Source: an uncultured Elusimicrobia bacterium (GTDB lineage: Bacteria; Elusimicrobiota; Elusimicrobia; UBA1565; UBA9628). From it: DNA of 56,667 bases. Under the pieces are notes generated by a model that searched no databases, was not told where the DNA came from, and saw nothing but the letters and a program-made list of their open reading frames with translations. Position numbers and translations under genes: made by a program. Positions 1 through 49,601 of the stretch are shown here, in pieces (position 1 is the first letter of the stretch; every line of letters starts with the position of its first letter). The stretch lies in the NCBI GenBank assembly GCA_964653765.1, contig CAZZGQ010000002.1:1-56667 (forward strand), written 5' to 3'.

Positions 1-2
1 TG

Positions 3-5342: not shown

Positions 5343-5345
5343 AGC

Positions 5346-7553: not shown

Positions 7554-7559
7554 AATCCA

Positions 7560-11356: not shown

Positions 11357-11364
11357 GGGGTACT

Positions 11365-12096: not shown

Positions 12097-12101
12097 TCGC
12101 C

Positions 12102-14757: not shown

Positions 14758-14761
14758 TTTC

Positions 14762-27468: not shown

Positions 27469-29146
27469 GTCCCATGTGCGCGCCAACGCCGCCATTTACG
27501 GCGGAGCGGGCATCATCGTCCAAATCTTTCGTCTTGTCCAAGAAGTCCTTTTGCGCCGACTGCTCACGACGGAGATCATCGGAATCATCGGCTTGGGCGA
27601 TTTGGTCCAAAGTTTCGCCAAGAGCTTGGATCTGGGCGTCGTTGTGGCCGCGGGACGAGATTTGCCGCTGCTTCGCGGAGCGGGACGCCTCGATGAGGAA
27701 GCGATCGCTCGGAGAACGGCTCTATGGGGCTATGTAGCGCAGGCCGTTATATTCGCTATCCCAGTCGTTGTTTACGCTCTCGTTGCCGTCACCGATCCCA
27801 ACATTCGCTGGGCCTTGTGTGCGGCCTCCCTCGTTCAGGTTTTGACCGCCGCCTGCGAGGCGCGGCAGCTGGTCCTTCAGTCCGTCCAGAATTTCGCGAG
27901 CTTAAGCCGCGTCAACCTCTCCTTCGCCTTGATCTATGCCGCTTGCGTTGTGAGCGGAGCGGAATTGTTTGGGCTGCGAGGGGTCCTTGTTGGGGGCGTG
28001 GCGGCCTGGATTGTTCAGACGTTTCTCCTGCGCCATTACATCGCCGGCTTAGTTCTTCAAGAGGGGCGTCTCGATTTCAGAGTATTAAAGAGTCTCATCA
28101 GCTTTGGCCTTCCCTTGAAGCTTTGTGATTATCCGACCGCGCTTGCATTTCTCGTTGACTCGATGATTGTTGGAAAGCTCTTCGGCCTTGAAGGATTGGC
28201 GATTTACTCGACGGCGCGCGCGTTCTTCAACCAAGCCCTCGAGCTTCCCACGCGGTTTGGAAGCGTCGTGCTGATGAGGCTGTATCATGACGACGCAGCC
28301 GAGGGAAGGGCAGTCTCGGCCGCTCAATTGGCTCGATTCCTTAAGGCGCAATATTTTCTCATCCTTCCGGTTTTGGTTTGCGGCTTTGCCGTTGGCCTTA
28401 GGTTCCTCGCCTCTTGTTTCCTGCCTCGTTACATGCCCACGGTTGCGGTGGCTGAAGTTCTTATTCTTGAGGCTTATTTTGTTCCGCAGATCAGCTTGAT
28501 GCGTAATTATTGGATCATCGACAAGAATCTGCGCCTAATCGCCGTCTCGGGAAGCTTGTGGCTCATCTCTCGCGTCGTTTTGCTGTATTGGCTGGCTGTC
28601 GGCCTGAAGCTTGGGCTTATCGGCGCCGCTTGGGCATGTGTCGCCAGCGCCATTGTCTATTACGCATTCCTTTTGATCGGGATCGGGCACCCGCTTTGGG
28701 GCGGTGCTGGCAGCACTCGGCTTGGCTTGTCGGCGATCATTTCGGCCGCCGTAGCGGCGATTGCTGTGCGACAATTGAATACTCCAATGCCAGCCGTTTT
28801 GACGGCAGCGATGCTTGTCGCCGTCCGTCAATTGACTGGAATGATGATGGTGATTTCTCCACTGATCCTTTTCGGCCTCCTTGTTGTCGTCGCCGAAGAC
28901 AATGACGTTGGTTCCGTTACTGTCTGTCTGCCGCGGCTGAGCTTGTGGGCTCTATTCTTTGCCAGGATCAAAAGGAGAAAACCACTGGACGTCTACTTCG
29001 AGGATTACACGCGCTATGCCAAGGCGCTCATGCGCTGGTTTGGCATCCCTGAATCTTGGTTGTTGATTTGCTACCAGCTTGTCGCTGGCCGCTCGGTTCG
29101 CCGATTGCCGCAACGAACCTTGGGGGTTCCATCCCTCTCGGCCTAA
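27449..29146 (+). CDS. wzx: Wzx flippase with an extra ~80-aa C-terminal extension (start TTG 27449 or GTG 27476)
   Basis: RRLL....G, DLG...A.GR.LP, LISFGLPL, D...VG.LFG..GLAIY, LGLIGAAWA; many TMs. Confidence 0.8.
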   Translation: MNASKGKSHVRANAAIYGGAGIIVQIFRLVQEVLLRRLLTTEIIGIIGLGDLVQSFAKSLDLGVVVAAGRDLPLLRGAGRLDEEAIARRTALWGYVAQAVIFAIPVVVYALVAVTDPNIRWALCAASLVQVLTAACEARQLVLQSVQNFASLSRVNLSFALIYAACVVSGAELFGLRGVLVGGVAAWIVQTFLLRHYIAGLVLQEGRLDFRVLKSLISFGLPLKLCDYPTALAFLVDSMIVGKLFGLEGLAIYSTARAFFNQALELPTRFGSVVLMRLYHDDAAEGRAVSAAQLARFLKAQYFLILPVLVCGFAVGLRFLASCFLPRYMPTVAVAEVLILEAYFVPQISLMRNYWIIDKNLRLIAVSGSLWLISRVVLLYWLAVGLKLGLIGAAWACVASAIVYYAFLLIGIGHPLWGGAGSTRLGLSAIISAAVAAIAVRQLNTPMPAVLTAAMLVAVRQLTGMMMVISPLILFGLLVVVAEDNDVGSVTVCLPRLSLWALFFARIKRRKPLDVYFEDYTRYAKALMRWFGIPESWLLICYQLVAGRSVRRLPQRTLGVPSLSA

Positions 29147-30561
29147 TCCTGCCAGTCCTTCCCCTTTTTGGGGCGGTTTACGTTTATTTCTTTGGGCTAA
29201 AAGCAAGTCCCATGCAGGCGCTCCTGGCCGCTCTTCTCTGTTTTTTGTTTTGGCCGAAGGTGGGCTTGCACCAGCCTCCTCTCCTAGAGGGGATGTCGGC
29301 CTATATTTTCATGTGGCCGATCACCACGAGCGCGCTCGCCTTAAGCGTCTGGCGACATGAAGGGAAGAGGCAGGCGTCGGTCGGCAAGGCGCTTGGACGA
29401 TGCCTTTTCATCGCCATAGCGGCCGTCACCGTCTCATTTACGGCCTCCTGGTTGGTCGACAAACAGGGTCTTGCTCCGTCCACGATCGAGCCGCGTTTGC
29501 GCGTTTATAATTTTCTCATCTTGCTGCAAGCAGGATGGTTTTCTTATTTGTTTTTGCGCAGCGTGCGCACCGCGCAGGATGCGCGCCGCGTATTAGAAAT
29601 CTTCGCCTTGGGCGGGGGCGTGATTGTCGCGGAGTCAATTGTATTCGCTTACCTGAAAATACCGTCGCCTGGCGGTTTGGCGTTCGATAAGACGGCAGGG
29701 CGTTTTCAGAGCTTCTTCTATTCCAGTTTCTCCACCGTGAATTTTTTTATGACCTTGGCGTTTTCGAGCATGATGTATATGTCCTTGACACGGCGTCGAG
29801 CGTGGCTGTTATTAACGGCGGCTTGCTTCTTGCCTGTGATGGCGACCTATGAGCGCGGACCGATTTGTGGGCTACTGTGCGTGGCTCTGGTGGCTTTCCT
29901 TGCGACGCGCCGGCGCAAACTGCGATGGTTGCTTTCGATCGCTGTTGTCGCCGCGGCGCTAGCCATCGCCTTTCCGCTATTCTCGGAAGGGTTGGGCCGC
30001 GTGATGGGGGGCTCGGTACGCAAGGATTATTTTTCCTCAGGCCAGGTTTCCGTGCGGCGCGCGATCTGGGCGCGTGGTCTGGATGTTGGAGTCGTAGCGT
30101 TTCCGTGGGGGGTCGGCCCTGGCCTGTTTTCGGAGCAGACGGACGCTGTAGCGATCTGGGTACCGCCGGAGCGGTTCGCCGGACCGGCGGATCGCCTGTT
30201 TTGGGAGACTTATAATAGCCTTGTTCATGGATGGTATCATTCCGATTTGCATAGCCTCTACATGACTTGGATTGTGGAAAATGGGCTTCTTGGGATCCTG
30301 ACTCTTGTCTTTGTGGCGTTTATTTTTGGAAGAAGCCTTCTGGCGCTCTTGCGTACTCCTATTCCCACCGGCGATGAACCGTGGCGAACCTATGCTTTAT
30401 GGGTTTGCTCTTGCGCCGCTTTCGCAGGCCTGGCCGTAGACTATGCTTTTGACGTCAATCCTTTTTTGTTTTTCATGCTGTTTCCCCTTTTGCACATCGG
30501 CAAGGTTTGCCAACGGACACTCAGGTACAATAGCGACGAGCAGGCCATGTCGATTTGTTAG
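29056..30561 (+). CDS. O-antigen polymerase/ligase family (Wzy/WaaL) membrane protein; start uncertain (29056-29212)
   Basis: About 12 TMs, TYERG, large loop with R..IW..GL..P.GVG.G.F, HSDLHSLY..W.VENG..G. Confidence 0.78.
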   Translation: MVVDLLPACRWPLGSPIAATNLGGSIPLGLILPVLPLFGAVYVYFFGLKASPMQALLAALLCFLFWPKVGLHQPPLLEGMSAYIFMWPITTSALALSVWRHEGKRQASVGKALGRCLFIAIAAVTVSFTASWLVDKQGLAPSTIEPRLRVYNFLILLQAGWFSYLFLRSVRTAQDARRVLEIFALGGGVIVAESIVFAYLKIPSPGGLAFDKTAGRFQSFFYSSFSTVNFFMTLAFSSMMYMSLTRRRAWLLLTAACFLPVMATYERGPICGLLCVALVAFLATRRRKLRWLLSIAVVAAALAIAFPLFSEGLGRVMGGSVRKDYFSSGQVSVRRAIWARGLDVGVVAFPWGVGPGLFSEQTDAVAIWVPPERFAGPADRLFWETYNSLVHGWYHSDLHSLYMTWIVENGLLGILTLVFVAFIFGRSLLALLRTPIPTGDEPWRTYALWVCSCAAFAGLAVDYAFDVNPFLFFMLFPLLHIGKVCQRTLRYNSDEQAMSIC

Positions 30562-38216: not shown

Positions 38217-39209
38217 ATGAAGGAAGCTGAAGTTCGCCCGCTCGACCTTTACAACCGTTACCTCGACTTAGCAAAACGGGACGCCAAGACCCTGATTGCC
38301 GAGCGGTCTGATTTTGTCGAAGTCGCTTGCTCTGCCTGCGCTGCGCGGCCGCACGTCGAGGCCTTCGAAAAACTGGGTTTTCGCTGGGTGGTCTGCCGGA
38401 CATGCGAGTCGCTCTATATATCGCCTCGTCCGACGCCGGAACAATTGCTCAACTTCTACAAGAACGGAGAGTCGGTGAAGTTTTGGAGCTCCGACTTTTT
38501 TCGGCAGACGGCCGAGGCCCGGCGAGAAAAGATGTTTCAGCCTCGGGCAAGGCTCGTGGCCGAGCTCGTGAATCGAGAGGCGTGGACCGGCGATAAGACG
38601 TTCGTCGATGTCGGCTCGGGCTATGGGATTTTCTTGGAGGAGATCCGCAAGCTTGGTGTTTTTAACGACATCGTTGGAGTCGAGCCCGGTCCGACGATGG
38701 CCCAGATCTGCCGAGAGAGAGGATTCCGAATCGTCCCAAAGATGGCCGAGGATGTCGTCGACGGCGATTGCCGCGCTGACGTCGCCACGGCTTTTGAGGT
38801 GCTCGAGCACGTCTTTGACCCGCTCAGGTTCTTGGCGGGAGTCCGGCGCCTGCTTAAGCCCGGAGGGCTGTTTCTTTATACGACCCTGACGGCCAGCGGA
38901 TTCGACATTCAAGTGTTGTGGGAAAGGTCCAACAGCGCTCACCCGCCTCATCATCTCAATCTGATTTCCGTCAAGGGGATGGAGCTGTTGCTCGAGCGAG
39001 CGGGATTCAGGCTCGTTGAGCTGGCCACTCCTGGCGAGCTTGACCTCGACATCGTGGCCAACATGGTTCGGGAGAATCCCGCGTTGCCGTTGCCTCGATT
39101 TGTCGCGGAAATGCTCAAGTCTTGCGACGACAAAGGGCGCAGGGAGTTCCAGTCCTTTCTGCGTAATAATCGCCTGAGCTCGCATATTCGCGTCGTCGCC
39201 CGCGCATGA
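38217..39209 (+). CDS. SAM-dependent methyltransferase with N-terminal Zn ribbon
   Basis: CSAC...CRTC..LY.SPRP, VDVGSG.G.FL, FEVLEH..DP, L.PGG. Confidence 0.86.
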   Translation: MKEAEVRPLDLYNRYLDLAKRDAKTLIAERSDFVEVACSACAARPHVEAFEKLGFRWVVCRTCESLYISPRPTPEQLLNFYKNGESVKFWSSDFFRQTAEARREKMFQPRARLVAELVNREAWTGDKTFVDVGSGYGIFLEEIRKLGVFNDIVGVEPGPTMAQICRERGFRIVPKMAEDVVDGDCRADVATAFEVLEHVFDPLRFLAGVRRLLKPGGLFLYTTLTASGFDIQVLWERSNSAHPPHHLNLISVKGMELLLERAGFRLVELATPGELDLDIVANMVRENPALPLPRFVAEMLKSCDDKGRREFQSFLRNNRLSSHIRVVARA

Positions 39210-40159
39210 CGCAAGCGAGCTTGACGCGCGTTCAGAAGCTGACCGTCGATGGGCAATCCGCTTTACGGCTAAACAACGGTCTGGTCCAAGTCGACGTCCT
39301 TCCCGAGCTTGGCGGCAAAATCTGGAATCTGATCCATGTCCCGTCGCAGACGCAGTGGATTTGGCACAATCCAAAAACTGCGCTCCAGAAGGTCGCGTCG
39401 GGTGCCAGCTACGATGACCATTGGGCGGGCGGCTGGGAAGAGCTTTTCCCAAACGACGCGGCCGGTATGTTCCAGGGCCGGAACCTTCCCGACCACGGCG
39501 AGTGGTGGAGTCGCCCCTGGAATGCCGAGGCTCTGGAGTCAGCCAGCGGACAATCGGCCGTGCGACTTTCGCTCGAGGGGAGCGTGTTGAGGGCGCGTTG
39601 CGAGAAACGCATCGAGGTTGCCGCCAACGCCGCGGAAGTCACGATCCGCTATCGAATCGAGAACCTGGAAGATAAGCCGATCCATTTTCTTTTCAAGCAG
39701 CATCTGGCCGTCGCAGTTACTCCGGAGCACCGTCTTGAAGTCCCAGGTGGTTTGGTCCGTCCGGTTGACCTAGACTTCAGTACGAGGCTTGGCGCGGAGG
39801 GGCCGTTTCCGTGGCCGCACGGTCTGGATCGTAAGGCTCAGCTGGTGGATCTCAGCGTCTTGCCCAAGCCTCAGGAGCGGCATCGCGAATTTGTCTATAT
39901 CGAACGCCTCACGGAGGGCGCCTGCGGCGTTCGCGACACGGTGACAGGACGCTCGCTGCGGTTAAAATTCTCCCAGAACACGTTTCCTTTTACCTGGCTT
40001 TTCTGCACGTATGGAGGCTGGCGGGACCTTTACACTGCCGTGCTCGAGCCATGCACCAATATGCCAAAGGATCTCAACGAGGCGTTCCGGCTCGGGAACT
40101 GCGCTTCGCTTGAGCCCGGCGAGTCATTAACGACCTCCGTCAGCGCCATTCTTTCATGA
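39206..40159 (+). CDS. Galactose-mutarotase-like (aldose 1-epimerase superfamily) protein
   Basis: P.LGGKI, GGWEELFP, DHGE, H, EP.T. Confidence 0.7.
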   Translation: MTQASLTRVQKLTVDGQSALRLNNGLVQVDVLPELGGKIWNLIHVPSQTQWIWHNPKTALQKVASGASYDDHWAGGWEELFPNDAAGMFQGRNLPDHGEWWSRPWNAEALESASGQSAVRLSLEGSVLRARCEKRIEVAANAAEVTIRYRIENLEDKPIHFLFKQHLAVAVTPEHRLEVPGGLVRPVDLDFSTRLGAEGPFPWPHGLDRKAQLVDLSVLPKPQERHREFVYIERLTEGACGVRDTVTGRSLRLKFSQNTFPFTWLFCTYGGWRDLYTAVLEPCTNMPKDLNEAFRLGNCASLEPGESLTTSVSAILS

Positions 40160-40908
40160 AGATCGTCGCCATCATCCCTGCGCGACTCAGCGCTTCCCGT
40201 TTCCCGCGCAAGCCCTTGGCGTCGATCCTGGGCCGCCCCATGATCGAGCACGTTTATCGGCGCACTCGGCTGTGCCGGTCTTTGGATGATGTCTATATCG
40301 CCACTTGCGATGAGGAGATTCGGCGGGTCGGCGAGAGCCTGGACGCGAAGGTGTCGATGACCTCGCCTCGACATGAACGCGCCAGCGACCGAGTGGCGGA
40401 GGCGGCGCGCTCTATTGAAGCGGACGTGATCGTCATGATTCAGGGCGATGAGCCGATGATCATCCCCGAGATGATCGATGGTGCCGTTGAACCGCTGCGC
40501 CGTGACCCGTCCGTGCTCTGCGCCAATCTTGCCGCGCCGATCAAGTCGGAGCGGGAATTCGCCGATCCAAACACCATCAAGGTGGTCATGGCCCAAAATG
40601 GCGACGCCCTTTATTTTTCCCGCGAGCCTATTCCGACGCGCCAGAAGTTCCCTTTTGGCGATCTTTCAGTCTACAAACAAGTTTGCGTCATTCCTTTCCG
40701 CCGGGAATTCTTGCTGCGCTATGCAGATTTGCCGCCCACGCCGCTTGAGCGAGCGGAATCGATCGATATGCTTCGCGCGCTCGAGCATGGTTATCCCATT
40801 CGGTTGGTCCGAACAGACGTGATGACTCATGCCGTCGATACCCCGGAAGATCAGCGGATCGTCGAGAAGATGATGCGCGCCGATCCGCTTGTTACCCAAT
40901 ATGCGTAA
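40156..40908 (+). CDS. kdsB: 3-deoxy-manno-octulosonate cytidylyltransferase family, paralogue 1
   Basis: IPARLSASRFPRKPL..I.G.PMI.HV, ASDRVAE, QGDEP, KVV, YFSR.PIP, LE..E.IDMLR.LE.G, VDTPED. Confidence 0.9.
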   Translation: MKIVAIIPARLSASRFPRKPLASILGRPMIEHVYRRTRLCRSLDDVYIATCDEEIRRVGESLDAKVSMTSPRHERASDRVAEAARSIEADVIVMIQGDEPMIIPEMIDGAVEPLRRDPSVLCANLAAPIKSEREFADPNTIKVVMAQNGDALYFSREPIPTRQKFPFGDLSVYKQVCVIPFRREFLLRYADLPPTPLERAESIDMLRALEHGYPIRLVRTDVMTHAVDTPEDQRIVEKMMRADPLVTQYA

Positions 40909-41872
40909 TCCAGCTTCTCCGTCAAAATTTCGCGTTTTGGTGTCGGCGCCTTACGCGATGCCGGTGATCGATCGTTACCGCAGCGTCCTTGAGCAAGCCG
41001 GCTGCGAGGTCGTCGTGGCCAAGGTCCGGGAACGTTTAAGCGAGGGCGAGCTTCTTGGCCTTGTGGTCGACGTTGATGGGATCATTTGCGGCGATGATCA
41101 GATCACGCTCCGCGTTCTTGAGGCCGCTCCACGTCTTAAGGTCATTTCAAAGTGGGGCACTGGCATCGACTCGATCGACGTGGAGGCCGCGCGCGCGCGA
41201 GGCGTTGCGGTTCGAAACACGCCTAATGCCTTCAGCGAGCCCGTCGCGGACACGGCGCTGGGGTATATGCTCTTGTTCGCGCGCCGCCTTGACACGATGA
41301 GTCAAGACATCCGAGCTGGCCGTTGGTCAAAGCCCGCGCTGTTCGCGTTGCGGGAAAAGACTCTTGGAATCATTGGCCTCGGCAATTGCGGGAAAGCCGT
41401 GGCGGGGCGGGCCGCGGCCTTTGGTATGCAGATCGTTGCCCATGACGTCGTCTCGCCGTCAAAGGAATTTCTGGCGCGATGCCCGGTTCGCTTGACAACG
41501 CTTGGGGAAGTGCTGGGAGCGGATTTCGTCACGATTCACGCCAATTTAAATCCCACGTCCTACCACCTGATCAACGATGCGGCGCTCGCGAAGATGAAAT
41601 CGACGGCTTACTTGATCAATACAGCGCGAGGACCGATTGTTGAAGAGGCCGCTCTTGTTCGAGCCCTCTCGGCCAAGCGCATCGCCGGAGCTGCCTTGGA
41701 TGTTTTTGAAAAGGAGCCTCTTCCGGAGGATAGCCCGCTTCGCCGATGCGACAATGTCTACTTCGCGCCGCATAACGCCAACAGCAGCCCTGAGGCGGCC
41801 GAGCGAGTCCATGAAAACACCATCGCCCAGCTGCTGAAGGACCTCCAAGCCGATCCGGTGGTAAGGGCCTAA
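40901..41872 (+). CDS. D-2-hydroxyacid dehydrogenase (SerA-like), paralogue 2
   Basis: SKWGTGIDSID, VAD, GLGNCG, INTARGPIV.E, LDVFEKEPLP, PHNA. Confidence 0.9.
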   Translation: MRNPASPSKFRVLVSAPYAMPVIDRYRSVLEQAGCEVVVAKVRERLSEGELLGLVVDVDGIICGDDQITLRVLEAAPRLKVISKWGTGIDSIDVEAARARGVAVRNTPNAFSEPVADTALGYMLLFARRLDTMSQDIRAGRWSKPALFALREKTLGIIGLGNCGKAVAGRAAAFGMQIVAHDVVSPSKEFLARCPVRLTTLGEVLGADFVTIHANLNPTSYHLINDAALAKMKSTAYLINTARGPIVEEAALVRALSAKRIAGAALDVFEKEPLPEDSPLRRCDNVYFAPHNANSSPEAAERVHENTIAQLLKDLQADPVVRA

Positions 41873-41875: not shown

Positions 41876-43822
41876 ATGCCTGAGACATCCGTCATCATCC
41901 GCGCGTTTAACGAGGCCAAACATCTTCCCAGGCTTTTTGACGCGTTGAAGCGTCAAACATACCGCGATTTCGAGACCGTCGTCGTTGATTCCGGCTCCTA
42001 TGACGCGACGCGCGACATCGCTCGTCAGAACGCGGACCGGCTGATCGAGATCCAGCAGCATGATTTCACGTTTGGGCATTCGCTTAACGTCGGCATTGAA
42101 AATAGCGGCGGCCGTTTTCTTGCCATCATCTCTGCGCATGCGGCGCCAACGAATTCCGAGTGGCTGGGAAACCTGATCGAACCCCTTCGCTCCGATCGCA
42201 CGGCTATGGTCTACGGGCGCCAGATCGGCGACCACCAGACTAAGCTTGGGGAGTTCGTCGATTTCTTGCGAACCTTTGGGACTGAAAAGAAGGTTCTAGT
42301 GGCGCCCGATTTCTTCGCCAACAACGCGAATTCGGTGCTGCGCCGGGATTTGTGGCAGCGCCGCCGTTTTGACGAGAATCTGCCAGGCCTCGAGGACATC
42401 GAGTGGGTGAAGTTTTTCATGGAGCAGGGCTATCAAGTTGTTTATGAGCCGAAGTCCTGCGTCTTTCATGTTCACGAGGAAACGTGGTCGCAAGTGCGCC
42501 GTCGCTATTATCGAGAAGGACAAGCCGCGAAGTGGATTGGAATCGCCGGACGGCGCGATCTGCCCAAGCTCTTCTTTCGAGAGATGCGTTCCTTGGTTGG
42601 CGATTTTTTCTGGACCATAAAACATGGGCGGTCGAGCCGGCCGATGGATATCGTTCGTTGGCGTTACGAGAAGCTGAGAGGTTCTAGCTCCGGCATATTG
42701 GACGGCGCGGCGATGCAAAACCCGGCGACCCGAAGGCAACTGTTGTTTGATCGCTCCTACAAGGCTGTCGTCGTGAGAGCTCCAGGCAAGGCCAGCCTCG
42801 AGGATGTTGAGATGCCGGCGCTCAAGCCTGGAGAGGTGCTTGTGAAGGTCGCCTACCAGGGAATTTGCGCTACGGACCGCGAAGTTTTCGAGGGAACCTT
42901 AGGGTACTATAAAGACGGTCTGGCCAAATATCCGATCGTGCCTGGGCATGAGTTTTCGGGCACCGTCGCGGCTTGTGGCGCCCGCATCGAGGATCTTCCC
43001 CATGGCAGCCCGGTCGTAGTTGAGTGCATTCAGGGATGCGGCAATTGCCCGCAATGCCGACAAGGGCGGAGTATCGGATGCGTTCAGAGACGCGAGGTGG
43101 GCGTCATCGGGAAAGACGGCGGTTACGCGGAGTTCGTGATAACGCCAAGAAAGTTCGTTCATGTTCTTCCGGCAGGGATGGATCTGCGCAAGGCCTGTCT
43201 GTGCGAGCCCACCGCTGTCGTCTTGAAGGGGCTGCGCCGATTGGCTGGAGCGCGGCTAGGAGCTCGTTTGGGCGAGTGCGCTGTCATCGGCGCTGGAACC
43301 ATTGGGCATTTGGCCGCCAGGATCTTGGAACTGCGTGGAAACCGAGTCACCATCTTCGACCGGGATCCTCGGCGCCTTGAGCCGTTTAACGGCAGCTCCA
43401 TTGGAACAAGCCGGGACGTGGATGATTTGACCCGATTCCAAACGGTCATAGAAGCGACCGGCGATCAAGAGGCCTTGGAGGACGTGCTGCGCAAATCCGC
43501 CGCCGGCACCACGATTCTATTGCTGGGGCTGCCCTATGCGCGCCGGGAATTCAGCTTTGAAAATATCGTCGGCTACGATCTGGCGGTCGTGGGCTCCGTC
43601 GGGAGCGGGTCCGAGGACTTCCGAGAGGCGCTGAAGGTCCTTCCTGAGTTAGACGTGCCCGCTTTTTACGGCGCGGTCTTTCCATTGGCGGACTATGAGC
43701 TCGCATGGCAGGCGGCCCGCGAGAGAAAATCGATCAAGGTGATGCTCGAGGTGAGTCGGCCTGAAGCCGCGCAGGCCGACTCACGCGAAGTGGCGACGGC
43801 TTCTGCTAATGGCCCGAAGTGA
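41876..43822 (+). CDS. Fusion: GT2 glycosyltransferase + Zn-dependent medium-chain dehydrogenase (MDR)
   Basis: N-half SVIIRAFNE, VVDSGS.D, ISAH, EDIEW; C-half from about aa 295 GICATD, GHE, CxxCxxC...C, GAGTIG; one uninterrupted frame. Confidence 0.85.
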   Translation: MPETSVIIRAFNEAKHLPRLFDALKRQTYRDFETVVVDSGSYDATRDIARQNADRLIEIQQHDFTFGHSLNVGIENSGGRFLAIISAHAAPTNSEWLGNLIEPLRSDRTAMVYGRQIGDHQTKLGEFVDFLRTFGTEKKVLVAPDFFANNANSVLRRDLWQRRRFDENLPGLEDIEWVKFFMEQGYQVVYEPKSCVFHVHEETWSQVRRRYYREGQAAKWIGIAGRRDLPKLFFREMRSLVGDFFWTIKHGRSSRPMDIVRWRYEKLRGSSSGILDGAAMQNPATRRQLLFDRSYKAVVVRAPGKASLEDVEMPALKPGEVLVKVAYQGICATDREVFEGTLGYYKDGLAKYPIVPGHEFSGTVAACGARIEDLPHGSPVVVECIQGCGNCPQCRQGRSIGCVQRREVGVIGKDGGYAEFVITPRKFVHVLPAGMDLRKACLCEPTAVVLKGLRRLAGARLGARLGECAVIGAGTIGHLAARILELRGNRVTIFDRDPRRLEPFNGSSIGTSRDVDDLTRFQTVIEATGDQEALEDVLRKSAAGTTILLLGLPYARREFSFENIVGYDLAVVGSVGSGSEDFREALKVLPELDVPAFYGAVFPLADYELAWQAARERKSIKVMLEVSRPEAAQADSREVATASANGPK

Positions 43823-45641
43823 CGACTCGCCGATTATCGTTGCTTTGCCCAGAGAGGCCGCCCGCCTAGCCAAGGGAATTGGCCGAGACCGAGAGTGGTG
43901 TTATCTCGGCTCCTCCATTCGTCGGCGAGAGCGCGTTTCTGCCGTTCTCAATAGCGAGCGCAGGGTCTCCGTTGCTCGAGAAATTGATCTGATCGCGGGC
44001 AGATGCAAACAACCGTTCCTGGACTGGCTTGAGAGCGTTGGACGTCTCCAACGCGATCGCCTGGGTTGGTGGACCTCGACGTTAGCCTCACGCAGCTCGC
44101 TGCAGACCGATCTTTTTCTTCAATTCTGTTACGCTGAGCTCATTCGGAGTTGGATTGCAGAGCGCCGTGGGCCGGTGGTTGTTGTTGTCGAGGATCCCTG
44201 GCTGATTTTATTCCTCAAGCGGCGCTTTCCAGACGAATCCGGGCTGGTCTTCTTTGGCGGATTGCCGATGGGCCTTTGCACTAATACGCTCTACTGGCTG
44301 GCGCGAGCGCCTTTGTCCGTCGCCCATACCCTGGCTTATGCCCTCGCCGCTTTCATGCTGGGTGGCCTTATTCGGCGTCGTGAGCCTCGGGAGGGTGGCG
44401 CGTCCGTCTTGATTCATACTTGGATCGATGGCCGATCCGTGTCCCAAAGAGGCGTCTTTCAGGACCCTTACACGGGAAGGCTGGAGTCATTTTTCACGTC
44501 ACGCGGGCAAACGGTGTTGCGTTTGACGCATTGGCACATCCCGCCCACTTTAATCCCGCGCCTGAAATCATTCTGGCAAGACTTCCTCCTGGCGCCTCAC
44601 TATTTGCGTCTAAGCGATATCCTTCACGCCGTGACGTCTCGTTTTACCCTCTCTAATCTGGATTCCATCCCGCGGATGCTTGGCTGGGATATGCGCCCTC
44701 TGCTACGTCGAGAAATGCTTCATGAGTGGGGCCATCCGGCCTATTCGCGATACCGGCTCACTTATCTATGCCTGCGCAGAATGGCCAGCCAATGGGCCAG
44801 TCAGGTCAAGTGCATCGTTTATCCCTTTGAAAACCTGCCTTGGGAAAAAATGCTTTGCCTGGCCTGGCGAGAAGCGTCGCCAACGGTTCGCCTTGTTGGT
44901 TATCAGCATTCGAGCGTGCCGCCGCTGCTGCTGAACTATTTTCTCGGTCAGCGTGAAAGCGAAATCATGCCATTGCCGGACCAGGTGATCGCAAACAGCA
45001 GTTATAATGAGGCACTTCTCAGGAGCGGCGGTTATCCGTCGGTGCTTAACGGGGGGGCCCTGCGCTACGAGCACTTGTTTTTGGACCTTTCGGCGGCCGA
45101 AGGGAGGAAGATTTCATCCGACGCGGATCGGTTCGTGCTTGTGGTTTTCCCGACGTGCGTGCCTTATGCCGAAGCCCTGTTTTTTGACGTCATGGAGACG
45201 TTTAAAGATCCGCTTCATGTCCCGGGGGCTCAGCGGCCCGTGCCGATCGTATTGAAATTTCATCCAGTGCTCCCGTTCAAAATAGTCGCACCCGCAAACG
45301 CGCGGCTGCCGCGCTGGGTTTCCGTCTCGGAGCAATCTCTCGACCAATTGCTTCCCAAGGCGGGAGTTCTACTTTATGTTCCGCACACGACGAGCTGGTG
45401 GGAGGCTTTTATCGCTGGCGTTCCGGTATTAAAATATCAGACCGATATGCTTGACGTGGATTCGTCTTCCGCCTTGGACGGAGACGCCCCTCGGATTTGC
45501 AGGCGAGAAACGATTCGCGATGAGATCGCAAGCGCGCTTTCGCGCGGGAAGACGGGAAAGTGCCCGGAGCATCAGCTGGAGAAGTTTTTTGGACGAGTTA
45601 ACGAAAACCTTTGGCTTCAAATGACGGGGGAACTTCGATGA
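43809..45641 (+). CDS. Putative glycan transferase, GT-B-like C-terminus (resembles LIC13510-type surface carbohydrate proteins)
   Basis: D.Y.G.L, YPFEN.PWEK....AWR, GYQHS, G..RY, LKFHP, T....EA..AGVP. Confidence 0.58.
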   Translation: MARSDDSPIIVALPREAARLAKGIGRDREWCYLGSSIRRRERVSAVLNSERRVSVAREIDLIAGRCKQPFLDWLESVGRLQRDRLGWWTSTLASRSSLQTDLFLQFCYAELIRSWIAERRGPVVVVVEDPWLILFLKRRFPDESGLVFFGGLPMGLCTNTLYWLARAPLSVAHTLAYALAAFMLGGLIRRREPREGGASVLIHTWIDGRSVSQRGVFQDPYTGRLESFFTSRGQTVLRLTHWHIPPTLIPRLKSFWQDFLLAPHYLRLSDILHAVTSRFTLSNLDSIPRMLGWDMRPLLRREMLHEWGHPAYSRYRLTYLCLRRMASQWASQVKCIVYPFENLPWEKMLCLAWREASPTVRLVGYQHSSVPPLLLNYFLGQRESEIMPLPDQVIANSSYNEALLRSGGYPSVLNGGALRYEHLFLDLSAAEGRKISSDADRFVLVVFPTCVPYAEALFFDVMETFKDPLHVPGAQRPVPIVLKFHPVLPFKIVAPANARLPRWVSVSEQSLDQLLPKAGVLLYVPHTTSWWEAFIAGVPVLKYQTDMLDVDSSSALDGDAPRICRRETIRDEIASALSRGKTGKCPEHQLEKFFGRVNENLWLQMTGELR

Positions 45642-46741
45642 AAAAGATTGTCCATGTCGCGGTGATCGGCTGCGGCCGCATTTCTGGCCATCATTGTCGC
45701 TCCATTGTCGAGGCGCCGGGCGTAAAGCTCGCGGCGGTATGCGATCTGGACGAGAAAAAGGCGCAGGCTTACGCCAAGGAGTTCTCGGTTCCGTGTTTTA
45801 CCAACTATCGCGAGATGTTGCGGAGAATTCCAGAGGTCGACGTGGTCGCTGTCATCACGCCCTCCGGCATGCATTATGAGCACTCATTGGAAATCCTCGA
45901 TACCTATCGTAAACACGTGATCGTTGAAAAACCTACTTTTATGCGCCCGAGCCAGGCGCGGCGTGTTTTTGCGCTTGCCCGCCGCCTTGGGCTTCAAGTA
46001 TTTCCCGTTTTTCAAAATCGCCACAACCTTGCCGTTCAACGGGTGCTTCGCGGTCTTCAGTCGGGCGAATTGGGAAAACCCAGAATCATTTCCGTGCGAG
46101 TGCGTTGGTGCCGCCCCCAACGTTACTATGAAATGGCGCCGTGGCGGGGGACGTTTGCCCAAGATGGTGGAGCGCTGACCAATCAGGGAATCCACCACAT
46201 TGACTTACTGCGGCTTTTCGGGGGAGAAGTTCGCCGGGTCAACTGCCTTATGCGAACGTTGGGTGTGGATATCGAGGTCGAAGACACCGCTCTTGCGACC
46301 GTCCAGTTTAAGAATGACGTGGTCGGCGCAGTCGAGGTCACGACAGCGGCAAGGCCAAGCGACTTCGAGGCCTCATTATCGCTAGTCTGCGAGAATGGGT
46401 TGGCCCAGATTGGAGGAATCGCCGTCAACGAGCTTCAGATCTTCACGCCCGACCCGTCGGCTTGCGTGGCGCATTCCGAGGATTTTAGCGGCTGCATTTA
46501 CGGCAACGGGCATAAGCAGATCTATCGGGAAATCAGCGCCTTCTTCAACGAGGGCGTTCCGTTTTCCGTAGCGGAAAGCGATAGCACGAGCACTCTTCAG
46601 CTGCTCAACGCCTTCTATCGCTCCGATGAGGCGCGCGAATGGGTGGAGGTCGATTCCGAGGGAGAGTCTACTCGTTTGGGGCGCGAGGATGAGTCATTGG
46701 CCAGCTTATACCGCAGCCAGCCCGAAGTGGTTCGAGCATGA
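45638..46741 (+). CDS. Gfo/Idh/MocA oxidoreductase (WlbA/WbpB-like)
   Basis: ATGA overlap; IGCGRIS..H, TPSGMH, EKP, FQNR.N, WRGT...DGG...NQ.IH.ID, VED. Confidence 0.9.
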   Translation: MKKIVHVAVIGCGRISGHHCRSIVEAPGVKLAAVCDLDEKKAQAYAKEFSVPCFTNYREMLRRIPEVDVVAVITPSGMHYEHSLEILDTYRKHVIVEKPTFMRPSQARRVFALARRLGLQVFPVFQNRHNLAVQRVLRGLQSGELGKPRIISVRVRWCRPQRYYEMAPWRGTFAQDGGALTNQGIHHIDLLRLFGGEVRRVNCLMRTLGVDIEVEDTALATVQFKNDVVGAVEVTTAARPSDFEASLSLVCENGLAQIGGIAVNELQIFTPDPSACVAHSEDFSGCIYGNGHKQIYREISAFFNEGVPFSVAESDSTSTLQLLNAFYRSDEAREWVEVDSEGESTRLGREDESLASLYRSQPEVVRA

Positions 46742-47514
46742 CGCGGGAGAAAATCGTCGGAATTGTGCCGGCGCGGATGGCGGCGTCTCGTTTTCCTGGA
46801 AAGCCGCTACATCCTATTCTCGGCCGGCCAATGATTGAACATGTATTTAGACGCGCTGAGCGCTTTAAAGGGTGGGACGGACTGCATCTGGCGACGTGCG
46901 ACGGCGCGATCGCCGATTTTGGTCACTCCAAGGGTTGGTCGGTGATAATGACAAGCGATAAGCACACTCGCTGCTTGGACCGGATTGCCGAGGCTGCCGG
47001 CAAGTGCGGCTTAAAACTCGCGCCAACGGACATTGTCGTTTGCGTTCAAGGCGACGAGCCAATGCTGCATCCAGACATGATCGCGGCAGCGATCCAGCCC
47101 CTAAAAAAGGATCGCCAAGCGCATGGAACCATCTTGGCGATGGAGATCGCGCAGCGCGAGCAGTTTGAGAATCCGGACACAGTCAAGATCGTCTACAACA
47201 AGGAAGGCGAGGTGCTTTACACGTCGCGCGCGCCCGTACCGTATTGCAAAGGCACGTTCTCCGTCGATCATGGGGCGAGGAGAATCTATGGCATTTTCGC
47301 GTTTCGCTGGAACGCGTTAAAGACTTTTACGAGGATGAAAGAAGGTCGCCTTGAACGGCTTGAATCGTGCGACAGCAATCGCCTGCTTGACGGAAAAGTC
47401 AGACAGAGAATCGCGCCGTATCCGTTCCGTCCTTCGTTTTCCGTTGATAGTCCGGCCGATATCCACCTCGTGGAGGAACACATGCGGAAGGATCCGCTAT
47501 GGGGGCGGTATTAG
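46738..47514 (+). CDS. kdsB: 3-deoxy-manno-octulosonate cytidylyltransferase family, paralogue 2
   Basis: VPARMAASRFPGKPL, DRIAEA, QGDEP, Y.SRAP.P, LE..ES.D.NR, SVDSP.D. Confidence 0.85.
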   Translation: MTREKIVGIVPARMAASRFPGKPLHPILGRPMIEHVFRRAERFKGWDGLHLATCDGAIADFGHSKGWSVIMTSDKHTRCLDRIAEAAGKCGLKLAPTDIVVCVQGDEPMLHPDMIAAAIQPLKKDRQAHGTILAMEIAQREQFENPDTVKIVYNKEGEVLYTSRAPVPYCKGTFSVDHGARRIYGIFAFRWNALKTFTRMKEGRLERLESCDSNRLLDGKVRQRIAPYPFRPSFSVDSPADIHLVEEHMRKDPLWGRY

Positions 47515-47515
47515 C

Positions 47516-48253
47516 GTGAGTACGGTTCGGAAAATCATTTCTCGAATCAGAAGTTGGAAGCAGGAGTTGACGGCGCCGCAGCAATTCAGGATGCAGTATT
47601 ACTCGAATCTGAAAACGCTGAGGACGGATTCGAAGCGCCCAGTTCTTAAGGAATTCCATTGCGATGCCACGGATCACCCAGTTTCCTACGTGGATTTCGA
47701 GTGCTCCTTCGCGGCTCGCCACATCGGCAAGAAAAATCCGACAACGATCCTGGACATTGGATCATATCGGCATTTCATTTTGGGATTGCAGGCAAAATAT
47801 AAGGTGACGACCCTCGATGTGCGGCCCAGGCCGAAAGCGACCGATAACGAGGTCGTCATCACCGGGGATGCCAAGCGATTGGATCTTCCGGACAACTCCA
47901 TTGACGCCGTTGTATCGCTGTGCGCCATAGAGCATTTTGGCTTGGGACGATACGGGGACGAATTTGATTTGAGCGGCGATAAGAAGGCCTGCCAAGAAAT
48001 GATCCGAGTCTTAAATCCAGGCGGAGTTTTGATCCTCACGACGACGATCACGCAAGGAAGCGCCCTGACCGTTTTTAACGCGCACCGCATCTACGATTAC
48101 GCGGCGATCCAGGCGTTGCTCGCTCCGCTTGAACGCGTCGAGGAGGCGTTCTTTAGTCATAATAAAGGCGGATGGTGCTCGCGTGAGGAGGTTTCGAGCG
48201 TGCCTGGGATTTGGGACGTCTACTGCGGCTGTTGGAAAAAGCCGGCAAATTAA
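47516..48253 (+). CDS. DUF268-like SAM-dependent methyltransferase-fold protein
   Basis: LDIGS, LD.R, SLCAIEHFGLGRYGD, HR.Y. Confidence 0.72.
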   Translation: MSTVRKIISRIRSWKQELTAPQQFRMQYYSNLKTLRTDSKRPVLKEFHCDATDHPVSYVDFECSFAARHIGKKNPTTILDIGSYRHFILGLQAKYKVTTLDVRPRPKATDNEVVITGDAKRLDLPDNSIDAVVSLCAIEHFGLGRYGDEFDLSGDKKACQEMIRVLNPGGVLILTTTITQGSALTVFNAHRIYDYAAIQALLAPLERVEEAFFSHNKGGWCSREEVSSVPGIWDVYCGCWKKPAN

Positions 48254-48263
48254 GAGGCAGAGA

Positions 48264-49601
48264 GTGAGGCTTCAGTCGACGTGGGTCGAGAAAAGCGCCA
48301 AAGCAGCGGCGCTTTGGATCATCGTCCTGATTTGGGCCTTGCATTTAGTCTATCCGATGCAGCGGCTTCAAGACGCACGATGGCTGATTTTCGGCAATAG
48401 TGTTCCGATTTATTTCTTCTTCATTGTCCCGCCCGTTTTGATCGCGGGGATTTTAACCGTGCTCTTCAAGCGCCAGTGGTCTAAATGGGAGCTGCTGTGG
48501 CTTGCTCTGCCCTTGATCTGCCTGCCTGGGGTTTTTGTCAGCACGGATCGCCTGTGGTCGCTGCGGCAATGGTCGAGCTTTATGATCCGCGGCCCGATTC
48601 CCGGCGGCGTCCTTTTTTTTGCGGCGCGCGCCCGCTCGCGCAGTTTCATCGTCGCTTGGATATACCCAGCGATCCTCGCGGCGGCTCTGATTGGTCTTGT
48701 GGAAGTGCTCTTTCATTTCAATCCCATTTGGAAAGACTTCAGCAACGTGATCCAAGAGACGGGCCAGATCACCAATCCTTTTTACCGCCCAGGTTATCAA
48801 ATGGCGCCGCCGACGCCGCCAAGGGGTACGCAGGGCAATAGAATTCCTTATGCGGCGACGCTGGTTGGTTTTTTCCCGCTGGGAATTTGGGTGCTCAAGC
48901 ATAAGAAATGGCCCCCGACGACCGCCTACGCGGCGGTTTGCTTGCTTTCATCCATTCTGATCTTGGCGGGATCAAGATCGGCTTGGATGGGGTTAGGTGT
49001 CAGTCTGGTATTGATGGCGTCCACGGGCCTTATTAAAAGCAGATTCGAATGGTTGAGCATTGCCGGTAGCGTTCTCTTCCTCTTGGGCGCCGCGTGCGCA
49101 TTGCCTGGTCCCCGCCATGCGCTGTGGAGCCGACTCCATTCGTTCCATTTCGCGGAAAACGGAATTCGTACCCGCCTTTACGGGTGGGAGACCGCCCGGA
49201 TGTTGAAGGATTGTTGGGCCTGGGGGGTTGGTTACGGCCAATATCCAAGCGCCGCCGATCGTTATTATCGCGGTCCCCGATGGCTGCCTTATTTCCACGG
49301 ACAAACTTGGATTGGAACGCCCGATAGTCAATATCTTCGATGGGCGATCGAGAATGGCATTTTGAGTTTGACCTTACTCGCCGCTTTTTTTGCAGGCCTT
49401 ATCCGCGAGAGTTGGGCCAGGATTCAATCTATTGCAGACGCCGAGGCGGTCGACTTTTACAAAGCACTGCTGGCCGGATGGGCGGCGGTCGCCACCACTT
49501 TTATGTTCTTTGATGGGTATTATTGGGGAGCCTGCAATATGACGTTCTGGGCCTTGCTGGGGTTATTCGCCACAAGCCTCGACGGCGCTGAGCTATGGTA
49601 G
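48264..49601 (+). CDS. O-antigen ligase (WaaL)-family membrane protein
   Basis: About 12 TMs, GTQGN, LAGSRSAW, R...W......GVG.GQY, SQYL.W..ENG. Confidence 0.78.
   Translation: MRLQSTWVEKSAKAAALWIIVLIWALHLVYPMQRLQDARWLIFGNSVPIYFFFIVPPVLIAGILTVLFKRQWSKWELLWLALPLICLPGVFVSTDRLWSLRQWSSFMIRGPIPGGVLFFAARARSRSFIVAWIYPAILAAALIGLVEVLFHFNPIWKDFSNVIQETGQITNPFYRPGYQMAPPTPPRGTQGNRIPYAATLVGFFPLGIWVLKHKKWPPTTAYAAVCLLSSILILAGSRSAWMGLGVSLVLMASTGLIKSRFEWLSIAGSVLFLLGAACALPGPRHALWSRLHSFHFAENGIRTRLYGWETARMLKDCWAWGVGYGQYPSAADRYYRGPRWLPYFHGQTWIGTPDSQYLRWAIENGILSLTLLAAFFAGLIRESWARIQSIADAEAVDFYKALLAGWAAVATTFMFFDGYYWGACNMTFWALLGLFATSLDGAELW

Follow-up and report, generated by a model that had tools for sequence, protein, structure and literature searches.

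The locus described here raises the question of what a GT2-type glycosyltransferase domain and a zinc-dependent MDR dehydrogenase do together in one polypeptide. The protein is encoded in a 56,667-nucleotide stretch of a contig from an uncultured Elusimicrobia bacterium (the window; Table 1), where a GT-A domain, a helical linker and a Zn-MDR domain follow one another. As the initial annotation had stated, one frame joins the two domains; it starts with ATG and is intact. Both domain sets are recovered by Pfam, with Glycos_transf_2 (PF00535) at residues 5-117 (E 2.8e-19), Glyco_tranf_2_3 at 2-215, ADH_N at 317-432 (E 1.7e-25) and ADH_zinc_N / Glu_dehyd_C at 440-625. The domain border had been put at about nt 42758 (residue 295); residue 293, found here, is in agreement. 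When the whole protein was modelled by AF2 (mean pLDDT 84.2, pTM 0.61), the inter-domain geometry carried no confidence, and a Foldseek search with this full-length model gave MDR matches only and did not separate the substrate class.

Table 1. The GT2-MDR fusion, its parts and its neighbours (positions are those of the window).
Feature	Position	Strand	Basis or remark
Class I SAM methyltransferase	38217..39209	+	Recurrent; 9 other loci have an orthologue close to the fusion
DUF4432, aldose-1-epimerase-like	39206..40159	+	Overlaps the KdsB1 start by 4 nt
KdsB/KpsU-like CMP-sugar synthetase (KdsB1)	40156..40908	+	PF02348, E 1.5e-48
PGDH-like D-2-hydroxyacid dehydrogenase	40889..41872	+	Ends 3 nt before the fusion start
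GT2-MDR fusion ORF, P0001	41876..43822	+	648 aa, ATG-initiated, no internal stop
Atypical GT2 (GT-A) catalytic domain, residues 1-225	41876..42550	+	Pfam, invariant columns, AF2, Foldseek
Helical linker, residues 226-292	42551..42751	+	Conservation, AF2 models
Zn-dependent MDR dehydrogenase, residues 293-628	42752..43759	+	Pfam, motifs, Foldseek
610-aa protein, TIGR04326-like, no Pfam family	43809..45641	+	Start overlaps the fusion end by 14 nt

Such a frame could be an assembly or frameshift artefact joining two separate genes. The source genome is indeed a fragmented MAG of 626 contigs, and one relative (G030) has the two halves in overlapping, stop-interrupted frames. However, this explanation is already refuted by the recurrence of the single-frame fusion in independent genomes (at least 594, some of them from isolates or closed chromosomes) and by the conservation of the linker between the domains. 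Of 599 stretches matched in a genome search, 594 encode the full-length fusion (at least 594 species), and the 120 best protein matches are all full-length homologues of 617-669 aa with both domain sets, at 53-74% identity. Because full-length matches in one frame recur in so many species (at least 594) and proteins (at least 120), we consider the junction genuine. The carriers are found among Proteobacteria, Nitrospira, Chloroflexi, Planctomycetes, Gemmatimonadota, Acidobacteriota, CPR bacteria and Thermoplasmatales, and include one haloarchaeon; Magnetospirillum sp. SS-4 and Haloarchaeobius baliensis are carriers in culture. The architecture is thus common and not rare, and no characterised example was found. 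A literature search for the fusion or for the cassette described below found no characterisation either, in keeping with the earlier remark that no characterised GT2-MDR fusion was known. Database names are generic ('alcohol dehydrogenase catalytic domain-containing protein') or wrong ('BchC'); we rejected the latter, a JGI name, since the protein scores 53.3 bits on TIGR01202 against a cut-off of 291. The family is therefore widespread and uncharacterised, and the fusion is very probably a real, conserved two-domain enzyme belonging to a CMP-acid-sugar cassette.

The GT-A domain had been called complete. Its fold is, the isolated domain being modelled by AF2 with a pLDDT of 95.8 and a pTM of 0.92, but the canonical DxD is absent. 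Foldseek matched the domain to PcManGT, TarP, TarS, CgT, WrtF, K4CP and GalNAc-T2, at E values of about 1e-13 for PcManGT, TarP and CgT, with the Pyrobaculum mannosyltransferase PcManGT on top. The domain shares with the inverting GT2 enzymes (SpsA, K4CP, TarP/TarS, PcManGT, WrtF; Foldseek probability 1.0) the GT-A fold, the nucleotide-binding motifs 'xxNE' and 'DSGSxD' and, at the usual catalytic-base position, an E-D pair that is a candidate for this role. Its signature reads R9-x-x-N12-E13, D38-S-G-S-x-D43 and F64-T-F-G-x-x-x-N71 in the N-terminal part, then S86-A87-H88 (nt 42131-42139) at the DxD position, N149-N-A-N152, E173-D174 (nt 42392-42397), H198-V-H200 (nt 42467-42475) and R210-x-x-R213-E214. 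When aligned with K4CP, the D-C-D of that enzyme falls opposite S86-A87-H88. The alignments showed that S-A-H is invariant in the fusion family, as is E173-D174, and that the serine and the histidine of S-A-H are kept in 120 of 123 sequences of the wider subfamily (122 cluster representatives and the query). Unlike the inverting GT2 enzymes, then, the fusion has an invariant S-A-H for DxD and adds an invariant H-x-H-E, R-x-x-R-E and an arginine (Arg9) for the usual proline. Judged by these motifs, the domain belongs to a distinct GT2 subfamily defined by S-A-H in place of DxD, H-x-H, Arg9 and E-D.

The GT-A domain also differs from the inverting GT2 enzymes in being joined or linked to enzymes of a putative sugar-acid pathway, and in a cross-phylum conservation that matches that of a metabolic enzyme. 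The median identity across phyla is 54% for the GT-A core, on par with the metabolic enzymes of the cassette (51% for the MDR, and 56% each for the KdsB-like enzyme and the 2-hydroxyacid dehydrogenase). The linker has a median identity of 36%, below both catalytic domains; its helices are predicted by AF2 at residues 226-250, 256-275, 277-281 and 283-291, and R263, K266, G269 and G273 are conserved. In other proteins this S-A-H domain has different fusion partners, namely a cytidylyltransferase, a methyltransferase, an MBL hydrolase or a cyclase-family hydrolase. In the loci of the Gemmatimonadaceae type, an aldose-epimerase-like gene overlaps the fusion start and the genome has no dedicated cytidylyltransferase. 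On the basis of the cross-phylum conservation, the fusion partners and these Gemmatimonadaceae-type loci, the domain appears to behave like a biosynthetic enzyme.

The dehydrogenase half holds all the motifs previously listed for it (GICATD, GHE, the structural-zinc cysteines and GAGTIG), and these are kept in 28 homologues. The catalytic zinc ligands are C331 (nt 42866-42868, in GICATD), H358-E359 (nt 42947-42952, in GHE) and E444, the first three residues being invariant in 28 sequences and E444 kept in at least 90%. The structural zinc ligands C388/C391/C394/C402 (nt 43037-43081) are likewise invariant in the 28 homologues, and so are G472, G474 and G477 of the Rossmann motif G472-A-G-T-I-G477 (nt 43289-43306). 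At the end of beta-2, D495 (nt 43358-43360) is invariant and of the NAD type. Because of this invariant Asp495, the sequence points to an oxidising enzyme and not to a TarJ-like NADPH reductase. The Cys-His-Glu-Glu catalytic zinc ligands, the structural zinc lobe and the Rossmann fold with its NAD-type Asp are shared with the Zn-MDR family of polyol, threonine and sugar dehydrogenases (sorbitol DH, TDH, GatD, IdnD/RspB, HpsP, archaeal glucose DH). In contrast to these, our MDR is joined to an N-terminal GT-A domain through a conserved helical linker, is only 20-27% identical to any solved structure and falls far below every cut-off of the NCBIfam equivalogs (the best is IolM, 127 bits against 450). 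Foldseek TM scores, normalised to the target, were 0.78-0.88 for HpsP, sorbitol DH, threonine DH, galactitol-1-P DH, RspB and the Haloferax glucose DH. The Glu_dehyd_C family (PF16912) gave 45.4 bits against a cut-off of 34.9; the Haloferax enzyme came only 44th in Foldseek and scores like other MDRs.

The genes around the fusion suggest the context in which it works. In the window the cassette runs mutarotase-like DUF4432, KpsU/KdsB-like, PGDH-like, GT2-MDR fusion and a GT-B-like protein of about 600 aa. KdsB1 exceeds the cut-offs of NF009905 (298.7 bits against 255) and TIGR00466 (159.1 against 155.2), and its best PDB match is E. coli KpsU (1GQ9, E 2.3e-46). The PGDH-like enzyme has the Arg/Glu/His catalytic residues and an NAD-type GxGxxG...D motif, and its family includes 2-ketogluconate reductases (9m0t match, E 1e-42; GhrB model). 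The 610-aa protein has no sequence match in the PDB, and Pfam gives sub-threshold GT-B hints only; counting the window, 28 loci have such a protein near the fusion, the relatives in the other 27 being only 24-29% identical, and we regard it as a candidate acceptor-specific transferase. Linkage was counted in the 51 loci whose flanks extend for 3 kb or more on each side of the fusion. In 36 of these a KdsB-like gene is found no more than 3 kb away, in 31 a 2-hydroxyacid dehydrogenase gene is adjacent, and 29 have both partners. Cassette gene starts and stops often overlap, and the fusion is translationally coupled to the KpsU/KdsB-like and PGDH-like genes in most loci. One further slot has two occupants, DUF4432 in 14 loci and a cyclase-family hydrolase (PF04199) in 17 others; the DUF4432 orthologue of one locus (L034) also matches Aldose_epim (PF01263). 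A Thalassovita plasmid carries an SDR and an SMP-30 gluconolactonase beside a standalone trio of GT2-like, cytidylyltransferase and PGDH-like genes, and Maf-type proteins are found on Rhodobacterales plasmids. The cassette is horizontally mobile.

Most likely, the cassette builds a CMP-activated 2-ulosonic-type (2-keto-aldonic) acid for a surface glycan, and does so by oxidation and not by an aldol condensation of the KdsA/NeuB type. The explanation that we favour as a whole, a bifunctional enzyme within an oxidative CMP-acid-sugar cassette, is put forward tentatively and with somewhat less than even confidence; the specific mechanism, whose five steps we infer, is more tentative again. The route would lead from a nucleotide sugar to the free sugar, its aldonolactone, the aldonate, the 2-keto acid and finally the CMP-sugar. 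The DxD-less GT-A domain would act on a nucleotide sugar and release the sugar or hand it over, by analogy with PseG, LegG and NeuC, the sugar-releasing hydrolases of nonulosonate pathways. The fused NAD+-dependent Zn-MDR would then oxidise the sugar, most likely at C1, to an aldonolactone, possibly with the help of a mutarotase-like protein or a lactonase-type hydrolase; the classical helpers of aldose-1-dehydrogenases are a mutarotase before and a lactonase after the reaction. The PGDH-like enzyme would oxidise the C2 hydroxyl of the aldonate to give the 2-keto acid, and the KdsB-like enzyme would form the CMP-sugar. A separate, fast-evolving transferase would install it, here perhaps the 610-aa protein and on the Rhodobacterales plasmids a protein of the Maf type.

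Such a route would resemble known pathways in part only. With the CMP-Kdo and CMP-nonulosonate pathways (KdsA-KdsC-KdsB/KpsU; NeuC-NeuB-NeuA; Pse, Leg) the cassette shares a surface-glycan locus and a KpsU-like cytidylyltransferase above the NCBIfam subfamily cut-off, and the proposed route would share the CMP-nonulosonate logic of free sugar release, 2-keto acid and CMP activation. However, the cassette has no aldolase or synthase, and two NAD-type dehydrogenases stand in the place of the condensing enzyme. No Kdo-8-P synthase was found in the cassette of the window, whose own genome has a housekeeping KdsA on another contig. Among 24 carrier genomes, 16 gave no KdsA above the cut-off; the 7 CPR genomes, the 6 Chloroflexi and the two archaea all belong to this group. 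With the oxidative, non-phosphorylative aldose pathways (aldose 1-dehydrogenase, lactonase and mutarotase; 2-ketoaldonate reductases of the D-2-hydroxyacid DH family), the cassettes share several enzyme classes, namely an MDR or SDR, a 2-hydroxyacid dehydrogenase and a helper of the mutarotase-like or lactonase type, whereas those pathways are catabolic and unlinked to cytidylyltransferase or glycan genes. The cassette may represent an oxidative route, hitherto undescribed and independent of an aldolase, to a CMP-activated non-3-deoxy 2-ulosonic acid, together with a new function for the GT-A fold, a possibility that we hold no more firmly than the five steps themselves. The S-A-H GT2 subfamily would then either hydrolyse nucleotide sugars as the dedicated, hard-wired partner of an aldose dehydrogenase or be the first GT2 with a CMP-linked donor.

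Several observations count against our favoured explanation. Neither a KdsB-like gene nor a 2-hydroxyacid dehydrogenase was found nearby in 13 of the 51 loci, and polyol, threonine, aldonate and glucose dehydrogenases match the MDR about equally well in sequence and fold. A distant S-A-H member in Gloeothece lies in an ordinary EPS cluster without a cytidylyltransferase, and we know of no nucleotide-sugar hydrolase with a GT-A fold. Fusions of a cytidylyltransferase with a GT2-like domain, which occur in both orders, fit 'activate then transfer' better. Indeed, the DxD-less GT-A domain could be the terminal transferase of a KdsB-made CMP-ulosonate, with 'make, activate, transfer' as the core trio and the MDR as the final modification, made on the CMP-sugar or on the residue just transferred, for example by oxidising a secondary alcohol of the side chain in the manner of a polyol dehydrogenase. 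A nucleoside-monophosphate-sugar donor would explain the loss of DxD more naturally, and S-A-H together with the basic R9, H198, H200, R210 and R213 fits a donor that has no need of a diphosphate-bound metal. The retained E173-D174 pair, a fold closest to true GT2 transferases and the persistence of the GT2-like, cytidylyltransferase and 2-hydroxyacid dehydrogenase trio in MDR-less form in Asaia, Thalassovita and Gemmobacter point the same way. Nevertheless we consider this reading rather unlikely: the metabolic-enzyme-like conservation of the GT-A core from CPR bacteria to archaea would be unusual with lineage-specific acceptors, separate transferase candidates exist (the GT-B-like protein of about 600 aa in 28 loci and the Maf-type proteins), 12 genomes have the fusion without any dedicated cytidylyltransferase, no GT2 enzyme using a CMP donor is known to us, and the source of the sugar acid in the KdsA-less genomes would stay unexplained.

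The remaining readings are less probable. If the GT-A domain were a glycosyltransferase acting on polyprenyl phosphate, as DPM synthase, GtrB and ArnC are, its linker helices would lie at the membrane interface and the MDR would oxidise the sugar before or after its loading on the lipid carrier; the high conservation across phyla would follow from an acceptor lipid common to all, long basic helices do follow the GT-A core and PcManGT is the closest structural match. We judge this improbable in view of the missing DxD, the lack of a transmembrane-like hydrophobic segment on inspection of the sequence (not by a TM predictor), the rmsd of 9-11 A of Foldseek alignments that include the helical part, the linker being the least conserved part of the protein, and the tight link to a CMP-sugar synthetase, which it does not explain. 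Loss of the DxD and the promiscuous fusion to several pathway enzymes might instead suggest that the GT-A domain is catalytically dead and serves as a nucleotide-binding or scaffold module recruiting the dehydrogenase to a pathway complex. Against this, the 122 cluster representatives agree fully or almost fully at about 40 positions, including the E-D pair and three histidines, and by alignment these cluster where GT2 enzymes bind donor and metal, a pattern typical for active sites kept by selection; we find it quite improbable. The comparison with TarJ made in the initial annotation is not supported. On a TarJ-like model, the MDR would supply a polyol phosphate for nucleotide activation by reducing a ketose phosphate, and the GT2 would transfer it. 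TarJ is itself an MDR, and TarI/TarJ and the cassette both place an MDR close to a cytidylyltransferase in a cell-surface polymer locus, but the partner here is of the KdsB/KpsU type (PF02348) and not the CDP-forming IspD/TarI type, the predicted cofactor of the MDR is of the NAD and not the NADPH type, as Asp495 would indicate, and the cassette has an extra GT-A domain as well as a 2-hydroxyacid dehydrogenase that would be left without a role. Furthermore, polyol-phosphate transfer is normally carried out by TagF- or LicD-type enzymes and not by GT2. We therefore regard a TarJ-like role as very improbable. The more general suggestion that the fusion couples sugar-nucleotide handling to redox chemistry is plausible.

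If our favoured explanation of an oxidative CMP-acid-sugar cassette is true, a class of surface sugars, the oxidatively made CMP-activated 2-keto-aldonic acids, has been missed in glycan analyses of organisms from Proteobacteria to CPR bacteria and archaea, and the pathway would be present in some 600 species or more, among them Kdo-lacking CPR bacteria and archaea. It would add a DxD-less catalytic type to GT2, the most populous glycosyltransferase family, and a new feed into KdsB-type synthetases. The family is large (at least 594 species) and at present mis-annotated. Acid-labile ketosidic residues of the proposed kind would matter for serotyping and for phage or immune recognition of surface glycans. 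Since every component is a soluble enzyme, the cassette should be easy to test in vitro. There is precedent for hexulosonic acids in capsules, the E. coli K3 antigen containing 4-deoxy-2-hexulosonic acid; KdsB1, the 2-hydroxyacid dehydrogenase and the fusion were unmatched in 5,426 E. coli genomes by blastn, a weak negative at the DNA level, and no phage homologues were found.

A WecB/NeuC-like epimerase displacing the GT-A domain was considered and set aside as anecdotal, such epimerases lying near the cassette in only 3 loci. At the Dehalococcoidia locus L080, the GT2 part is missing and an epimerase of this type is present.

The GT2-MDR gene runs in a single frame of 648 codons from an ATG start with no internal stop. 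Its start follows the upstream stop codon by 3 nt, and it ends in a 14-nt overlap with the start of the downstream gene; the antisense ORFs over it are shadows. Pfam places a GT2 domain at residues 2-215 (PF00535, E 2.8e-19; PF13641) and a complete zinc MDR at residues 317-625 (ADH_N, E 1.7e-25; ADH_zinc_N; Glu_dehyd_C). When we searched 5.8 billion proteins, the best 120 matches were all full length (617-669 aa, query coverage 96-100%, identity 53-74%) and all carried both domain sets. Scanning one genome per GTDB species gave at least 599 matched stretches, at least 594 of which encode a relative of the fusion, nearly always as a single frame spanning residues 1-626. Among its carriers are members of the Proteobacteria, Nitrospira, Desulfobacterales, Chloroflexi, Planctomycetes, Gemmatimonadota, Acidobacteriota, Elusimicrobiota and several CPR phyla, as well as one MAG of the Thermoplasmatales; Magnetospirillum sp. 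SS-4 and Haloarchaeobius baliensis are carriers available as isolates. Across 28 sequences, linker residues R263, K266, G269 and G273 never vary. The fusion is genuine and not an artefact: the intact frame proposed in the initial annotation is borne out by the uninterrupted codons and by the same fusion in at least 594 species genomes, and the motifs it quoted (GICATD, GHE, CGNCPQC...C and GAGTIG) are all there. Protein names in databases and the literature searched yielded no characterised counterpart, but the fusion is not rare; it is frequent but uncharacterised.

The gene for this conserved two-domain enzyme, whose catalytic motifs are intact, is coupled to those for a CMP-sugar synthetase and a D-2-hydroxyacid dehydrogenase. 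In the window, the genes around it are co-directional and tightly packed (see table), and the core of this arrangement is shared between phyla. Among the 51 loci whose flanks both reach 3 kb or more, a KdsB-like gene lies within 3 kb of the fusion in 36, a 2-hydroxyacid dehydrogenase gene in 31 and both in 29, while one slot is occupied either by DUF4432 (14 loci) or by a PF04199 hydrolase (17 loci). Elusimicrobiota and Desulfobacterales loci keep the gene order, with the dehydrogenase gene overlapping the fusion start. The KdsB-like protein is closely related to KpsU (1GQ9, E 2.3e-46), the CMP-Kdo synthetase of capsules. The 2-hydroxyacid dehydrogenase is closest to type III PGDH, with 2-ketogluconate reductase also matched (E 1e-42), and retains the Arg/Glu/His catalytic residues and an NAD-type motif. 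The 610-aa protein encoded 3' of the fusion belongs to no Pfam family, is TIGR04326-like at 68.7 bits (below cut-off) and gives a sub-threshold GT-B hint; 27 further loci (28 counting the window) have relatives close to the fusion, with only 24-29% identity and weak GT-B hints, and we regard it as a candidate transferase for the cassette product. A second half-cassette, made up of the oxidoreductase, another KdsB-like gene and the DUF268-type methyltransferase, follows directly on the 3' side, and two different acidic sugars may therefore be activated at this locus. A DUF268-like methyltransferase also adjoins the fusion in a Saccharibacteria locus (L056).

Coordinates of the fusion, its neighbours in the window and features of homologous loci in other genomes
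Feature	Position	Remark
First part of window	1-12000	
Surface-glycan region	12000-54000	
Wzy_C gene	29056-30561	
Methyltransferase	38217-39209	same direction as fusion
DUF4432 aldose-epimerase-like protein	39206-40159	same direction as fusion
KdsB-like cytidylyltransferase	40156-40908	same direction as fusion
PGDH-like D-2-hydroxyacid dehydrogenase	40889-41872	same direction as fusion
GT2-MDR fusion	41876-43822 (+)	648 aa
610-aa TIGR04326-like protein	43809-45641	3' of fusion, same direction
Second half-cassette	45611-48253	
Gfo/Idh/MocA oxidoreductase	45611-46741	same direction as fusion
Second KdsB-like cytidylyltransferase	46738-47514	NF009905 222.9 bits, below cut-off of 255
DUF268-type methyltransferase	47351-48253	same direction as fusion
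Wzy_C gene	48129-49601	
L003, radical-SAM enzyme	10052-12142 (-)	
L034, Gemmatimonadaceae locus	5133-9996	
L056, radical-SAM enzyme	4656-6053	
L064, upstream genes	2469-5915	Taylorbacteria (CPR), 5' of cassette
L064, radical-SAM enzyme	14635-16146	
G030, split fusion copy	C16:88289-90189	

The MDR domain is a bona fide zinc MDR of the polyol/threonine subgroup, with catalytic ligands C331, H358, E359 and E444, structural ligands C388, C391, C394 and C402, a GxGxxG Rossmann motif and Asp495, which is invariant and of the NAD type. Its matches to polyol, threonine, aldonate and glucose dehydrogenases are of similar strength, and its substrate is not readable from homology because its scores lie far below every curated equivalog cut-off. 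JGI's name for the fusion, BchC, is wrong: it scores 53 bits where the cut-off is 291.

The GT-A domain had been described as complete. Its fold is predicted with very high confidence (AF2, pLDDT 95.8, pTM 0.92), and Foldseek on this model finds likeness to the true GT2 enzymes PcManGT, TarP, TarS, CgT, WrtF, K4CP and GalNAc-T2, yet the DxD is missing: the alignment sets S86-A87-H88 opposite D-C-D of K4CP. The GT2 subfamily bearing this S-A-H motif comprises 392 clusters at E <= 1e-30. In the 122 representatives analysed, a near-invariant signature (R9, N12-E13, D38-S-G-S-x-D43, F64, N71, S-[AG]-H, N150, E173-D174, H198-x-H200 and R210) is independent of architecture, with 74 standalone proteins, 23 MDR fusions and 25 other fusions. 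In the other fusions that were checked, the domain is joined to a methyltransferase, to a hydrolase of the MBL fold or of the PF04199 cyclase family, or, at either end, to a PF02348 cytidylyltransferase.

In 2-keto sugar acids, the anomeric hydroxyl is the group on which KdsB-type enzymes act. However, no KdsA- or NeuB-like gene was found in the cassette, and 16 of 24 carrier genomes have no Kdo-8-P synthase above cut-off, including all CPR (7/7), archaeal (2/2) and Chloroflexi (6/6) genomes tested, so the Kdo pathway cannot generally feed the cassette's dedicated KdsB-like enzyme. A housekeeping KdsA is encoded in the window's own genome, on a different contig. We propose that a sugar is oxidised to a 2-keto-aldonic (2-ulosonic) acid and then CMP-activated: a KdsB-type enzyme is present and the synthase missing, and two NAD-type dehydrogenases, one from a family that interconverts aldonates and 2-keto-aldonates, replace the synthase. 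Mutarotase-type and lactonase-type helpers are classical companions of aldose 1-dehydrogenase, and the recurring helpers here, an aldose-epimerase-like protein or hydrolases of three unrelated folds (PF04199, MBL and SMP-30) with lactam or lactone hydrolases among their members, imply that the reducing sugar is free. The occurrence of hexulosonic acids in capsules, such as the E. coli K3 antigen, also argues for such a product. Only in its last step is the cassette like the CMP-Kdo and CMP-nonulosonate pathways. It is unlike TarI/TarJ, its cytidylyltransferase being KpsU-like and its MDR NAD-type. The initial annotation, which had drawn the TarJ comparison, is supported in part. The widespread, mobile cassette that the fusion marks plausibly encodes a new way of making an acidic surface sugar.

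As for the GT-A domain, we slightly favour, and only tentatively, a role as biosynthetic entry enzyme, which would release the sugar from a nucleotide sugar straight into the fused dehydrogenase. Over the span from CPR bacteria to archaea, conservation of its core (median identity 54%) matches that of the three metabolic enzymes (51-56%), whereas the candidate acceptor-specific transferase, the 610-aa protein, is at 24-29%; many loci have separate transferases, and the commonest fusion partner, the MDR, would catalyse the next step. Only somewhat less probable is the main rival, in which the DxD-less domain is itself the transferase for the CMP-sugar; it explains the loss of the DxD and the fusions to cytidylyltransferases better than the entry role does.

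Variant loci also occur. On two Rhodobacterales plasmids (Thalassovita pAge77, L085; Gemmobacter p5, L087), the S-A-H GT2 is standalone and is accompanied by a NeuA-like cytidylyltransferase and a PGDH-like enzyme but not by an MDR; several Maf/MptE-like proteins, one about 1,580 aa long, lie on the flanks, and the Thalassovita locus adds an SDR and an SMP-30 gluconolactonase. Maf-type proteins are known nonulosonate transferases for flagellin, and the arrangement suggests that the product decorates flagellin or another protein. In one Dehalococcoidia locus the GT2 part is missing, and a standalone MDR accompanies the KdsB-like and 2-hydroxyacid dehydrogenase genes. Thirteen of the 51 loci, mostly from Gemmatimonadaceae, have neither partner nearby, and in the genomes of 12 of them the sole KdsB homologue is the housekeeping one (35-44% identity). 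In the Gemmatimonadaceae locus L034, which was annotated in detail, the start of the fusion lies within the end of an aldose-epimerase-like gene, and around them are GT4 genes, a formyltransferase, a polysaccharide deacetylase, a protein of 631 aa and a weak ATP-grasp match; such a match was given by a neighbour cluster conserved in the partnerless loci (c13, tested from L023). There the fusion product may be used differently, for example as a carboxylate ligated by an ATP-grasp enzyme. A distant Gloeothece S-A-H member lies in an ordinary EPS cluster with no cytidylyltransferase.

B12-binding radical-SAM enzymes adjoin the cassette in L003, L056 and L064 and form a neighbour cluster (c25) in 8 loci; they recur in Desulfobacterales, CPR and Rhodospirillales loci alongside several SAM methyltransferases, and in such lineages the sugar may be C- or O-methylated. 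Upstream of the L064 cassette, a standalone MDR, a transketolase split into its N-terminal and C-terminal halves and a fragment of a PfkB-type kinase may form a separate sugar-building module.

GC content is 53-61% across the surface-glycan region against 62-72% in the first part of the window, so the cassette looks horizontally acquired. Just 3 of 40 genomes related to that of the window contain the fusion; this and the drop in GC both agree with a glycan island gained by horizontal transfer. In one of those three, from the same family (G030), two overlapping frames interrupted by stops encode the GT2 and MDR halves, which reflects either a decaying copy or a sequencing frameshift. The two separate Wzy_C (O-antigen polymerase/ligase-like) genes in the window suggest two repeat-unit systems or a composite cluster.
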